This document shows positions 18,319-23,539 of a stretch of DNA of 64,000 bases, piece by piece. The notes beneath the pieces were generated by a model. The model searched no databases. It saw only the letters and a program-made list of their open reading frames with translations, and was not told the origin of the DNA. Made by a program: the position numbers and the translations under genes. The stretch is from Fibrobacteria bacterium (lineage in GTDB: Bacteria; Fibrobacterota; Fibrobacteria; UBA11236). The stretch is taken from positions 15,065-79,064 of the forward strand of contig JANYDA010000057.1 of assembly GCA_025360005.1 (NCBI GenBank). Direction: 5' to 3'. The stretch's first letter is position 1, and every line of letters starts with the position of its first letter.

Positions 18319-19334
18319 AGGCCCTGGTCACCGGGGCCAAGGGGTTCATCGCCGGATACCTGATCCAGGATCTGCTGGAGCACGGTTGGGACGTGGTGGG
18401 TTTGGACAACGGATCCAAATACGGTCCGGTCGAAAAAAGCTACGATCATCACGCGCATTACCGCTATGCGCAAGGGGACGCCAAGGATGCGGCTCTGCTG
18501 AAAGAACTGCTCGCGGATTGCGACCACTTCGTGGCGGGCGCGGCCATGATCGGCGGCATCTCCTATTTCCACGCCTATGCCTACGATTTGCTGGCCGAGA
18601 ACGAGCGCATCACCGCGGCCGCTTTCGACGGAGCCATCTGGGCGCATAAGCATGCCCGCTTGAAGAAGATCACCATCATCTCTTCCTCCATGGTTTTCGA
18701 GAATGCCGCGCGTTTCCCCACGCCGGAAGGCCATCAAAAGGAATGCCCGCCTCCCTTCTCCACCTACGGGTTCCAGAAGCTGGCCACGGAGTATTTCGCC
18801 CTGGGCGCCTGGCAGCAATATCGGTTGCCGTTCACCATCCTGCGGCCGTTCAACTGCGTGGGCACGGGGGAAAAGCGCGCGCTGGGAGGCCATGAGATAA
18901 AGTCCGGCAACCTATCCCTGGCCATGACCCACGTGGTGCCGGACCTGGTGCAGAAGGTTTTGAAGGGGCAGGATCCGTTGCGCCTGTTGGGCAGCGGGGA
19001 ACAGGTGCGCCATTATACCTACGGCGGAGACCTGGCCCGGGGCATCCGCATGGCCATGGAAAGCGATAAGGCCGCCAACGAGGACTTCAACCTCTCCACC
19101 GCCGCTTCCACCTCGGTCATCGAGCTGGCGCAACTGGTGTGGAAGAAAATCAAAGGCGATCAGCCGTTCCGTTTCGAGAGCGACCGACCCTTCGCCCATG
19201 ACGTGCAGAAGCGCGTGCCGGACGTCTCCAAGGCCAAGCGGGTGCTGGGCTACGAAGCGAACACCACCCTGGACGCCGCCCTGGACGAGATCATCCCCTG
19301 GATCGAGAACCAGATCCGCCTGGGCGGCATGTAG
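18315..19334 (+). CDS. NAD-dependent epimerase/dehydratase (extended SDR; ArnA-C/UXS-like decarboxylase candidate)
   Basis: Start chosen at MKALVTGAKGFIAGYL (ATGA overlap with the dehydrogenase stop); YGFQK catalytic dyad; TILRPFNCVG resembles ArnA_C TLFRPFNWMGP. Confidence 0.8.
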   Translation: MKALVTGAKGFIAGYLIQDLLEHGWDVVGLDNGSKYGPVEKSYDHHAHYRYAQGDAKDAALLKELLADCDHFVAGAAMIGGISYFHAYAYDLLAENERITAAAFDGAIWAHKHARLKKITIISSSMVFENAARFPTPEGHQKECPPPFSTYGFQKLATEYFALGAWQQYRLPFTILRPFNCVGTGEKRALGGHEIKSGNLSLAMTHVVPDLVQKVLKGQDPLRLLGSGEQVRHYTYGGDLARGIRMAMESDKAANEDFNLSTAASTSVIELAQLVWKKIKGDQPFRFESDRPFAHDVQKRVPDVSKAKRVLGYEANTTLDAALDEIIPWIENQIRLGGM

Positions 19335-20092
19335 TGGCCGGCCTGGTGGAAATCATCATCCCCGTCTACAATGAAGGGGAAAACATCGTCCGCACCCTGG
19401 AGGAGATCGAGGGTTCCATCTCGCATCCGCATTCCATTACCGTGGTGTACGATTTCGAGCAGGACAATACCCTGCCGCCCTTGCGGCGCTTCATGGAATC
19501 CGGCCGCGCGGATATCCGCATGCTCAAGAACAGTTACGGGCGGGGCGCGCTGAACGCCATCCGCACCGGTTTCGAATCGGCGCAGAGGGAATGGTGCCTG
19601 GTATGCATGGGGGATCTTTCCGACGACATGACCGCGGTGGCGGCCATGCTCGCCAAGGCGGACGAAGGTTGCGACGTGGTATGCGGCTCCCGTTACATGC
19701 GGGGCGGCCGGCAGATAGGCGGCCCCATCTTCAAGTCCCTGCTGTCCCGTATCGCCGGGGTTACCCTGCACTTCATCGCGGGCGTTCCTACCCATGACGC
19801 CACCAACAGTTTCAAGCTGTACCGCCGCAGCCTGTTCGACCGCATCCGCATCGAAAGCGACGGCGGCTTCGAGATAGGCATGGAGATCCTCATCAAGGCC
19901 CATCTGCTGGGCTGCAAGATAGGGGAGGTGCCTGCCACTTGGCGGGACCGCTCCGGCGGGGAATCCAAGTTCAAGCTCTTCAAATGGCTGCCGCATTACC
20001 TGCATTGGTATTTCCTGGCTTTCCGGGGCCGCTTCCAGCGCGCTCCCGCGCGCATGCGGGCGGGCTCCCACGGAATGAACGCGGCCGCCTGA
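19334..20092 (+). CDS. GT2 polyprenol-phosphate sugar synthase (DPM1/Ppm1-like, soluble catalytic domain)
   Basis: EIIIPVYNEGENI...CLVCMGDLSDD... typical dolichol/polyprenol-P-mannose synthase-type GT2; GTG start overlapping the previous stop. Confidence 0.8.
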   Translation: MAGLVEIIIPVYNEGENIVRTLEEIEGSISHPHSITVVYDFEQDNTLPPLRRFMESGRADIRMLKNSYGRGALNAIRTGFESAQREWCLVCMGDLSDDMTAVAAMLAKADEGCDVVCGSRYMRGGRQIGGPIFKSLLSRIAGVTLHFIAGVPTHDATNSFKLYRRSLFDRIRIESDGGFEIGMEILIKAHLLGCKIGEVPATWRDRSGGESKFKLFKWLPHYLHWYFLAFRGRFQRAPARMRAGSHGMNAAA

Positions 20093-20094
20093 TC

Positions 20095-21810: not shown

Positions 21811-21811
21811 C

Positions 21812-23539
21812 ATGCGCAAGACGTATGCCTTTCCGCTGTGGCCCGTGCTGGGATTCTGCGCCTATTCCCTGCTGTACTTCCCCTTGCTGTACCATCCCGG
21901 ACTGGTCCGCCTGGATGACTTCGGATATTTGCAAAGCGTGGCGGAAACCCTGGTCCGGCATCGCCCCTTCACGCACGATTCGCTGGAGCCGTACGGCGCC
22001 ACCATGTCCGTGCTGGGAGCTTTGATCTATGCGGTCACGGGCGATTTCCCTTTCGCCACCTGGGGCCTGCAAGCGTTGTTCGCGGGCGCGAATTTCTTCC
22101 TCCTATACGCGTTGATCCGGCCGAGGCTGGGTCCGCGCGGCGCGTCCCTGTCCGCGCTTTTGCTGGCGACCCAGCCCATCTACTGGTACAAGTGCGCAGA
22201 GTACACCGGCAACGTTTTCACCATGGCGTTCGTACTGGCGGCGCTGTTGGCCTACCGGCGCGGCCGCTGGGGCTGGTTCTTCCCCCTGGTTTTCCTGGCC
22301 TTCGCCAACCGCCAGAACAGCGTGGCCATGCTGGCGCTACCGGCCTTCCAGCTGGCGTTTGATCGAACCATGCCCGCATCCGTTAAGGCCCGGTTATGGA
22401 TCGGCGTGGCCGCGTTCGTCGCGGCCGGCCTTGGCCTGCATGCCATCATGAACCATACCGTGGCTCAAGCCCAGAACATCTATGCGGTTCTGGACGCGCG
22501 CAAATGCCTGCTCATCGTCCGCGCCGGGTTCATCGGCTTATGCCTGGGCCTGGCCTGGCTTTCCTGCCTGGGTTTGCTGCTGGGGAAAAACGCCTTGGCC
22601 AACCTGCGCGCCAACCTTTCGCGTCCCTGGCTGCCGCTGGCCGCCACCTGCGGCTTTCTGGCGCTGTTGCTGCCTTCCTCGCTGCCCCATTTGCGATCGC
22701 ATCCCTATGTGGAGTTCTGCGCCCCTTTGCTATTGGACTTGGACGCGCGCATCCATTTGCAATGGTTCCTGGCCGCGTTGGTTCCCGGCCTGCTATGGGC
22801 GCTGGACTGGCGCGCCGCCTCGCGGCCCACCCCGGCCATGGCTTTGTTCCTGGGCTATGTGGCCGTAAGCGGTCTCAGGGCGTTCTGGTACGATTTCTAT
22901 CTCATCGATCTGGCCCTGGCCGCATTGTTCCTGCTGCTGGAGGACGGAGGCGCGCTGCGGCCCGTCCGGATCGCGCCGCTGCTGGCGGGGTTCATCCTGC
23001 TTGCGCATATCGCCTGGGGCTACGGCTTCAAGATCCTGGCGGACAAGGAAATGCTTTCCTTGCGTTCCTATGAAGGCATGGAAAGGGATCGCGGCTTGCC
23101 GGTGGATCGCATGACGGGAGCGCCCTGGGGGTACCTGGGATGGAAACTCTACGATCATCTCGTTTCCCATTCGGATACGGATGCGCGCAAGAGTTTCGGC
23201 TGCTATATGCTGGCCGACCAGGTGGTGGTGGAAACGCAGTTGCCCTGGAGGCGGAGCTATAAGCGGAGCGTGTTGCCGCCGCAGGCCCTTATCCTGGAAG
23301 CGGGGAAGACGCCCATCGGCGGATTTCCGGTGCCGTATCGCGTCCTGGATTTGAGGAGGGCGGGGTCGCCGCCGGGGGATCCGGCATGTTACCTTTCCCT
23401 GGAAGGCGCGCAATATCGCAGCAAACCTTTCCCCCTCGATGCCGCGGAATGGTCCGCCTATATCCGGGAGCGGCGCCGGAATTACGGGTCCGGGACCGGC
23501 ACCGGTGCCTCCCTCCCACGGCCCGCAAGTCCCTTCTGA
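21812..23539 (+). CDS. GT-C-like polytopic membrane protein, tandem paralog 2
   Basis: Start chosen at MRKTYAFPLW, 1 nt after the paralog-1 stop. GLVRLDDFGYLQSV motif and C-terminal VDRMTGAPWGYLGWKLY...ETQLPWRRSYK are co-linear with paralog 1. Confidence 0.55.
   Translation: MRKTYAFPLWPVLGFCAYSLLYFPLLYHPGLVRLDDFGYLQSVAETLVRHRPFTHDSLEPYGATMSVLGALIYAVTGDFPFATWGLQALFAGANFFLLYALIRPRLGPRGASLSALLLATQPIYWYKCAEYTGNVFTMAFVLAALLAYRRGRWGWFFPLVFLAFANRQNSVAMLALPAFQLAFDRTMPASVKARLWIGVAAFVAAGLGLHAIMNHTVAQAQNIYAVLDARKCLLIVRAGFIGLCLGLAWLSCLGLLLGKNALANLRANLSRPWLPLAATCGFLALLLPSSLPHLRSHPYVEFCAPLLLDLDARIHLQWFLAALVPGLLWALDWRAASRPTPAMALFLGYVAVSGLRAFWYDFYLIDLALAALFLLLEDGGALRPVRIAPLLAGFILLAHIAWGYGFKILADKEMLSLRSYEGMERDRGLPVDRMTGAPWGYLGWKLYDHLVSHSDTDARKSFGCYMLADQVVVETQLPWRRSYKRSVLPPQALILEAGKTPIGGFPVPYRVLDLRRAGSPPGDPACYLSLEGAQYRSKPFPLDAAEWSAYIRERRRNYGSGTGTGASLPRPASPF

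Follow-up and report, generated by a model that had tools for sequence, protein, structure and literature searches.

A five-gene operon in a 64,000-nucleotide stretch of DNA (the window; contig JANYDA010000057.1) from an uncultured soil Fibrobacterota bacterium probably serves extracytoplasmic glycosylation through a lipid-linked monosaccharide. The operon spans positions 17110-23539 of the window on the + strand, and codes for a nucleotide-sugar 6-dehydrogenase, a short-chain dehydrogenase/reductase (SDR), a family 2 glycosyltransferase (GT2) and two paralogous membrane proteins, A and B, which in this reading are transferases of the GT-C fold. Its enzymes probably make a lipid-linked sugar, likely an acidic one, which the duplicated membrane proteins attach, outside the cytoplasm, to a molecule of the cell surface. 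The logic of a synthase paired with GT-C enzymes is known from the Gtr, Arn, Rgt and GT136 systems; what is new is a GT-C family that has neither its own Pfam or NCBIfam model nor a named relative, and that carries a private C-terminal domain.

Operon layout and putative donor-making genes

The five genes are tightly packed, with spacings of -4, -1, +2 and +1 nt in operon order, and a promoter-like site, an Ile-rich leader open reading frame (ORF) and a strong terminator set the next gene, for citramalate synthase, apart from them. Both features indicate that 17110-23539 is one operon, ending at 23539. Overlapping stop and start codons run from the dehydrogenase through the SDR to the GT2, so that these genes are translationally coupled. 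An earlier note on this DNA had described a three-gene cassette, a GT2 followed by two tandem membrane paralogs. Its ORFs stand with small corrections: A begins at the ATG at 20095, 2 nt and not 3 nt after the GT2, B does start 1 nt past the stop of A, and the cassette has five genes, the dehydrogenase and SDR lying tightly packed upstream. Since 16876-17109 contains no sigma-70 consensus, the operon promoter is presumed there from the gene layout. No small membrane protein is called within the +/-10 kb shown around the operon.

The GT2 matches the Pfam GT2 model PF00535 with an E-value of 5e-19. Its top PDB sequence match is the Pyrococcus Dol-P-Man synthase (5mlz; E 1.7e-20 over residues 5-235), and ArnC (6e-10) and GtrB sll0501 (1e-5) are further relatives. 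All of its best solved relatives are polyprenyl-phosphate glycosyltransferases, and all top NCBIfam matches are of the same class; these relatives show the class of the enzyme at the level of sequence, and we infer its substrate. The protein has no hydrophobic segment and hence no transmembrane (TM) anchor, a trait shared with DPM1, so the description of a soluble DPM1-type enzyme in the earlier note was apt. None of the NCBIfam equivalogs (ArnC, PgfS, AglJ, PpgS and the haloarchaeal Dol-P-hexose transferase) is matched above its cut-off; the highest scores reached are 48 bits (cut-off 375), 47 (500) and, for ArnC, 41.6 (529). The DAD (DXD) motif of DPMS, ArnC and GtrB aligns to M-G-D in the GT2, in which the second Asp alone is kept. 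This is a trait of the whole subfamily, whose signature is M[GA]DLSD: 93 of 120 homologs (P0187-P0306) have Met in place of the first Asp. The subfamily is large (more than 5700 matches at E<=1e-20) and consists of TM-less enzymes of about 240 aa, with 57-60% identity to members in other phyla. Close homologs are labelled dolichol-phosphate mannosyltransferase in the JGI annotation. In contrast to DPMS, the enzyme belongs to an unnamed bacterial subfamily, which in every locus looked at occurs with a dehydrogenase and an SDR.

In the dehydrogenase, the N-terminal, central and C-terminal UDPG_MGDP_dh domains of Pfam are all matched, and the score against NCBIfam TIGR03026 is 241 bits (cut-off 190). 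The nearest NCBIfam equivalogs are UDP-ManNAc and UDP-Glc dehydrogenases, with every score under the cut-off, and the PDB relatives include 3vtf, 4r16 and Cap5O. From sequence, the Cys of the GPCLFKD motif is read as the catalytic Cys. The SDR matches the Pfam models Epimerase and GDP_Man_Dehyd, and the solved structures closest to it are those of GalE-type and UDP-glucuronic acid (UDP-GlcA)/UDP-N-acetylhexosamine (UDP-HexNAc) 4-epimerases (4zrm, 6zl6, MoeE5, WbgU). Decarboxylases and dehydratases of this superfamily carry a Glu right after the catalytic Ser/Thr. The SDR motif, SSSMVF...YGFQK, has no such Glu, and UXS and ArnA match only the C-terminal half of the protein (residues ~166-332). 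We therefore rejected the SDR as a UXS/ArnA-type decarboxylase that would supply a xylose or 4-amino-4-deoxyarabinose (Ara4N) donor. The coupling of the dehydrogenase and SDR genes to the GT2 gene, and their retention beside it across phyla, make a polyprenyl-phosphate uronic sugar a more likely donor than mannose.

All nine Fibrobacteria loci with upstream sequence have the dehydrogenase-SDR-GT2 triad directly before the GT-C genes. At the five sampled loci of distant GT2 homologs, the triad adjoins in every case a different polytopic protein. The dehydrogenases of the distant triads (L040-L046) are 395-399 aa long and the SDRs 336-339 aa, and the polytopic partners are PMT_2 proteins (416, 527 and 547 aa), a YfhO-like protein of 765 aa and unannotated proteins of 415-587 aa. 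Gene order is kept in four of the five sampled places; in L046 the GT2 and SDR are swapped. One of the sampled triads lies in a metagenome-assembled genome (MAG) of the Deltaproteobacteria. In the literature searched, neither this triad nor the five-gene cassette is described. Partners from the distant triads (L041) and the DUF2079 protein next to the operon were tried as members of the A/B family and rejected, the hhalign probabilities of these comparisons being 0.7-6%. That the same triad adjoins different polytopic proteins elsewhere suggests a widespread donor module with an exchangeable GT-C partner. We tentatively extend this to a broader proposal, to which we give somewhat less than even odds: the triad would be a widespread bacterial pathway for polyprenyl-phosphate uronic (or N-acetyl-uronic) donors with interchangeable GT-C partners, A and B would form a new CAZy-level GT-C family, and their C-terminal domain would be a new acceptor-binding fold.

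The A/B family and its predicted GT-C-like fold

A and B align by BLASTP over 562 residues with 40% identity (E 5e-95). It extends across the soluble C-terminal ~150 aa, which taken alone are 43% identical, and the likeness is thus one of specific motifs and a soluble domain, as the earlier note had supposed, and not of TM composition. The motifs it quoted are all present: the first-loop motifs VRSDDFGYLRSV in A and VRLDDFGYLQSV in B, VDRMTGAP(F/W)G(L/Y)LGWKL, VETQLPWRR(A/S)(F/Y)K and (R/P)FPLD. When B was used as the query against 5.8 billion proteins, just 45 relatives were found, nearly all full-length, the named ones all from Fibrobacterota MAGs. In the resulting alignment of 46 members (residue numbers follow B), the invariant residues are D35, D36, F37, Y39, P60, P122, F156, R167, Q168, P177, D361, Y363, E421, R425, G440, G443, W444, K445 and P541; P478, W479 and R480 are conserved in at least 90%. 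The acidic first-loop motif that had been pointed out is thus part of an invariant DDFxY, and the family has motifs of its own: DDFGYL, ANRQN, W.D.Y, FGYLGWKL and LPWRR.

The phyletic distribution comes from a scan in which each species was represented by one genome; it found 38 loci with A/B homologs, mainly in Fibrobacteria and Verrucomicrobiota. Fourteen are in Fibrobacteria MAGs (31-59% identity), and the remainder belong to Verrucomicrobiota (Opitutaceae, Lacunisphaera, Prosthecobacter) and to a single MAG of the Planctomycetota. Full-length matches outside Fibrobacteria have 25-34% identity, and short fragments up to 55%. A single cultured strain is among the 38 loci, Opitutaceae bacterium EW11. 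The family falls into two clades, an A clade of 15 members with 55% mean identity and a B clade of 29 members with 48%, with 36% identity between clades; paralog A, whose sequence is identical to P0030, belongs to the former. Most Fibrobacteria loci hold one copy of each clade (copy number 1-3, with the order swapped in one locus), indicating that the duplication, already noted from the window, is old and separates two orthologous clades. Eighty positions, including all putative catalytic ones, are identical in both clades and ten are clade-specific. Both copies therefore look functional, and A and B probably serve two different sites, linkages or acceptors; the two acceptor specificities that the earlier note had suggested are plausible, with only the ten positions setting the clades apart.

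Sequence profiles give weak matches to several GT-C models. A has no match in Pfam or NCBIfam. B matches PMT_2 (PF13231) at the borderline (26.3 bits, threshold 26.1) and scores 16.2 bits against GT22 (PF03901; threshold 23.8), while GT87 (PF09594) is unmatched in both. PF02366 (PMT) and MIR give no match in A or B at E<=1, nor in the 46 members at E<=0.01. Thus, among the families the earlier note had named for profile searches, GT39 and GT87 are without a match, and what does appear is PMT_2, borderline and in B only. Weak Pfam matches among the 46 members are to PMT_2 (five, at E<=0.01), GT22 (six), PIG-U (two), DUF2079 (one) and ALG10 (one), and 35 members are without a match to either PMT_2 or GT22. 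The weak PMT_2, GT22 and DUF2079 matches cover the conserved TM3-TM6 region (residues 70-203 of B); compared with these families, A and B carry their own motifs and their own C-terminal domain. Between the family and the neighbouring DUF2079 protein of the window, hhalign gave a probability of 6%. By sequence, membership of GT39, GT83, GT87 or GT22 is not established.

The structural evidence comes from B as modelled by AlphaFold2 with the family alignment as input (pLDDT 92.5, pTM 0.93). Foldseek against the PDB returned GT-C enzymes for all of the top 25 matches, with probabilities of 0.80-1.00 and E-values down to 5e-5. They comprise ALG12, ALG9, ArnT (5ezm and 5f15, in the top five), STT3, Pmt1/2, AglB, PglB, Pmt4, AftB, EmbB, GPI mannosyltransferase I and ALG3. 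PIG-U chains are also among the Foldseek matches (probability 0.91-0.99). ALG, ArnT and STT3 outscore Pmt, and transporter folds rank below the GT-C enzymes, at probabilities of 0.25 or less. Global TM-scores against GT-C structures are modest (0.28-0.41), the GT-C N-terminal module alone being conserved; local superposition on Pmt1/2 and Pmt4 covers 243-262 columns at 4-5 A. Membership of the GT-C fold, which the earlier note had proposed for the paralogs, is thus well supported by the model.

Family-averaged hydropathy predicts 13 hydrophobic cores. Lys and Arg gather on alternate loops (a sum of 17.8 on the seven predicted cytoplasmic segments, the N-terminus and six loops, versus 6.9 on five short outward loops), suggesting a topology with the N-terminus inside and the C-terminus outside. 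In this topology D35/D36 sit 8-10 residues past TM1, in the first outward loop. Most of the invariant or near-invariant polar residues (D35/D36, K127, R167/Q168, N214, D361/Y363 and those of the C-terminal domain) would likewise face outwards; the exceptions are the near-invariant R105 and D332, which fall on predicted cytoplasmic loops. Set against the architecture of PglB/STT3 and ArnT, this topology implies a layout of the ArnT/PglB type for A and B.

Modelled alone, residues 418-565 of B form a small alpha/beta unit (pLDDT 89.3). This C-terminal domain has no match in Pfam, its profile none among PDB sequences, and Foldseek found none in the PDB (best E 0.086, TM <=0.24), the PglB/STT3 domains included, or in the viral models of BFVD. 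The impression that it resembles no named domain was therefore borne out. Its profile gave 211 matches at E<=0.001 among 1.84 billion representative proteins. In nearly all of the matches listed, the domain lies at the C-terminal end of proteins of 500-640 aa, or in shorter, probably truncated, proteins; a 2694-aa match (P0110) was discarded as spurious, being an insect allergen repeat protein. Because the matches sit at the end of proteins of this family, the domain appears private to it. Its conserved Trp, Arg and Lys residues are in FGYLGWKL, LPWRR, R510 and E546-W547. Together with the predicted periplasmic position, and by analogy to the extra domains of other GT-C enzymes (PMC11127046), they suggest that the domain probably holds the acceptor, which is the role of the periplasmic domains in ArnT, PglB and the Emb proteins.

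Proposed pathway and its alternatives

In the pathway that we propose, the dehydrogenase and SDR would start from a nucleotide-linked hexose or HexNAc and yield the nucleotide form of a uronic sugar, possibly a C4 epimer. The GT2 would then move the sugar to polyprenyl phosphate at the inner membrane face, and the lipid-P-sugar would be flipped by a factor encoded outside the operon. Finally, A and B would pass the sugar on to an acceptor in the periplasm or the outer membrane (lipopolysaccharide (LPS), another glycan or a protein), using an outward-facing active site around the invariant first-loop DD; here we infer the donor sugar, the acceptor and the chemistry. Bactoprenyl-P-galacturonic acid (GalA) synthesis was reportedly described by Kanjilal-Kolar and Raetz in 2006. 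The Rgt transferases are GT-C/ArnT-like, and rgtA and rgtB are adjacent paralogs. Precedents exist for the donor step: AepG, a DPMS-like GT2, makes Dol-P-GlcA, showing that an enzyme of DPMS type can use UDP-GlcA (PMC9943897), and the bactoprenyl-P-GalA synthase RgtE feeds the GalA transferases RgtD/F (PMC7663294; PMC12387048). A synthase, a flippase and a GT-C enzyme with an extra acceptor-binding domain together form a general scheme (PMC11127046).

Several results weigh against this proposal. The dehydrogenase and SDR scores against NCBIfam equivalogs are far under cut-off, and their specificities are not fixed by them; with M-G-D in place of DAD, the metal or nucleotide handling of the GT2 may differ. 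The operon has no flippase gene (GtrA, SMR or MATE) and no extra gene within 17110-23539, and nothing in the data identifies an acceptor. Neither phmmer with B nor the full-length family profile found anything meaningful among all PDB sequences, ArnT chains included. Finally, the Verrucomicrobial A/B homologs (27-32% identity) have no sugar-activation genes nearby, so the link to the donor genes is seen just in Fibrobacterota. The conserved neighbours of these homologs amount to within-genus synteny with an S9 peptidase, a histidine kinase and an HD hydrolase, all unrelated.

The closest systems share the logic and differ in the parts. In the GtrB/GtrA/GtrC and GT136 pentofuranose systems, too, a polyprenyl-phosphate (Pren-P) synthase stands beside a GT-C enzyme that acts outside the cytoplasm and has an extra extracytoplasmic domain, presumed to bind the acceptor (Kelly et al. 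2024, PMC11127046). In contrast to them, the operon described here lacks a flippase gene, its synthase is TM-less and has M-G-D for DAD, sugar-activation genes are part of the operon, two GT-C paralogs stand in tandem, and the extra domain is not recognisable as a carbohydrate-binding module. With ArnC/ArnT and RgtE/RgtA-D,F it shares the order of UDP-sugar oxidation, tailoring, formation of a polyprenyl-P-sugar and use by a GT-C enzyme. ArnT, among the best structural matches, shares with A and B the inferred layout of 13 TM segments and a C-terminal periplasmic domain, and the Rgt system has several GT-C paralogs served by one donor, as A and B would be. However, the Arn system has no member here at the level of sequence (the ArnC score is given above, and ArnT is unmatched), the C-terminal domain is unrelated to that of ArnT by Foldseek, and the SDR is not ArnA-like, because the decarboxylase Glu is missing. 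The earlier note had compared the cassette with both ArnC/ArnT and Ppm1/Pmt; the synthase-plus-GT-C logic of that comparison holds, whereas its mannose and PMT part is not supported.

Protein O-mannosylation of the Ppm1/Pmt type, in which the GT2 would make polyprenyl-P-mannose and A and B would be GT39-type transferases, is improbable. A Dol-P-Man synthase is indeed the best solved relative of the GT2, the JGI label agrees with it, B has its borderline PMT_2 match, and Pmt1/2 and Pmt4 are among the Foldseek matches. However, ALG, ArnT and STT3 score better than Pmt, PF02366 and MIR are absent, A has no Pfam match at all, and PMT_2 is found in 5 of 46 members. Moreover, a dehydrogenase and an SDR, translationally coupled to the GT2 here and kept with it across phyla, would be pointless for a GDP-mannose donor; the presence of these two genes argues for a uronic sugar over the mannose of the earlier note. 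ArnT/Rgt-type modification of lipid A or the LPS core has a better, though still small, chance. Here A and B would add an acidic or amino sugar at two positions of lipid A or 3-deoxy-D-manno-octulosonate (Kdo), as RgtA/B/C/D do with GalA and ArnT with Ara4N. The two ArnT structures among the top five matches and the inferred 13-TM architecture with a C-terminal periplasmic domain suit it, as does a dehydrogenase with an epimerase-like SDR, which could provide a supply of the UDP-GlcA to UDP-GalA type; an anionic glycolipid might be held by the conserved Arg, Lys and Trp of the C-terminal domain. The tandem paralogs also recall rgtA/rgtB. Yet ArnT is without a sequence-level match, no lipid A or core genes are among the annotated genes at ~10.7-31.3 kb, and such a modification would be a special case of extracytoplasmic glycosylation from a lipid-linked sugar rather than a different mechanism.

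Two further alternatives concern what A and B do. That they resemble oligosaccharyltransferases or polymerases, acting on polyprenyl-PP-linked oligosaccharides or building an Emb/Aft-style polymer, is very improbable. STT3, PglB, AglB, EmbB and AftB are among the structural matches, and an extracytoplasmic domain with the aromatic FGYLGWK loosely recalls the C-terminal domain of STT3/PglB. The operon, however, codes for a Pren-P synthase of monosaccharide type, no phosphoglycosyltransferase, Wzx or Wzy is found among the annotated genes around it, the C-terminal domain is unlike the PglB/STT3 domains in Foldseek, and the WWDYG motif is missing. We consider it least probable of all that A and B, like PIG-U, are GT-C-like proteins without transferase activity, serving as scaffolds, flippases or lipid-sugar transporters. 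PIG-U chains do appear among the matches of the model, two of the 46 members match the PIG-U Pfam model, and the operon has no flippase gene. One of the two paralogs might also assist the other without catalysis of its own, as happens in heteromeric GT-C complexes. Against this, the DD pair and the outward polar residues are invariant in both clades, and the transporter folds score low.

If this operon does serve extracytoplasmic glycosylation, A and B stand for a GT-C family that annotation has missed, with ~200 sequence clusters found in soil Fibrobacterota, Opitutales and a few further groups. The operon would point to a much wider three-gene donor module, reveal a route by which poorly known phyla modify their surface glycans, and offer glycobiologists a defined set of genes to express in looking for a new polyprenyl-P-sugar and the transferases that use it. 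It leaves current thinking on extracytoplasmic glycosylation unchallenged.

Neighbouring DNA and feature coordinates

Table 1. Positions in the window of the operon genes, their motifs and the features nearby
Feature	Position	Strand	Remarks
Nucleotide-sugar 6-dehydrogenase	17110-18318	+	402 aa; operon gene 1; database gene call
Extended SDR, epimerase-like	18315-19334	+	339 aa; shares 4 nt with the end of the dehydrogenase gene and 1 nt with the beginning of the GT2 gene
GT2, TM-less, putative polyprenyl-phosphate glycosyltransferase (lipid-linked donor synthase)	19334-20092	+	252 aa; GTG start
GT-C-like paralog A	20095-21810	+	571 aa; ATG start; membrane domain and C-terminal domain (~21385-21807)
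Paralog A first-loop motif RSDDFGYL	20254-20277	+	Putative catalytic D56/D57; read from sequence
GT-C-like paralog B	21812-23539	+	575 aa; 13-TM domain (residues 1-~405) and C-terminal domain
Paralog B first-loop motif RLDDFGYL	21908-21931	+	D35/D36; sequence and family alignment
Family-specific C-terminal domain of B	23063-23506	+	Residues 418-565; predicted periplasmic
Divergent intergenic region, presumed operon promoter	16876-17109		Between the DUF2079 gene (-) and the dehydrogenase gene (+)
Methyltransferase	11736-12404	+	222 aa
WecD-like acetyltransferase	12392-13147	+	
WecE-type dTDP-4-amino-4,6-dideoxyhexose aminotransferase	13237-14391	-	563 bits, cut-off 375
ArnC-like GT2 with long C-terminal extension	14411-15430	-	339 aa
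DUF2079 membrane protein	15472-16992	-	To 16875 in the database gene call
Promoter-like site, small ORF and terminator	23634-23793		TTGACA at 23634; ORF 23673-23738; hairpin 23760-23785 and T-run

A second lipid-sugar module of similar logic (13237-16992, - strand) runs divergently from the operon, suggesting that the region is a glycan-decoration locus. Its DUF2079 gene is duplicated in tandem in L005.

In two relatives a SAM-methyltransferase of ~222 aa is inserted between the GT2 and the first GT-C gene (L005:7637-8220, L007:5809-6477), and a similar-sized gap is present there in L002, L008, L010 and L034; the window lacks this gene, and the methyltransferase of equal length at 11736-12404 is not its orthologue. 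The junction at 20085-20110 of the window, CTGATCATGGGCGC, matches the GT2-methyltransferase junction of L007, and A starts with MGAWD where the methyltransferase starts with MGALD. From the likeness of the junction DNA and of the N-termini, it seems that a deletion joined the beginning of the methyltransferase gene to A. In those relatives the methyltransferase might modify the sugar.

Downstream of the operon, the small ORF encodes an Ile-rich leader peptide, MNRRYAILIIRISIGASSGLL, which is followed by a strong intrinsic terminator before the citramalate synthase gene (ATG ~23819). In each of the 11 Fibrobacteria loci that were checked, the citramalate synthase gene is likewise preceded by an Ile-rich ORF (..IIIRI..) and a terminator. 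The leader region reached the threshold of no Rfam family; it has the look of a classical isoleucine attenuator serving Ile synthesis through citramalate. Farther on (26287-31269) are unrelated genes with housekeeping or mixed roles, for HisD, a cation efflux protein, a fatty acid desaturase and a 3-keto-disaccharide hydrolase-like protein, and the order citramalate synthase - methyltransferase - hisD is syntenic across Fibrobacteria loci.

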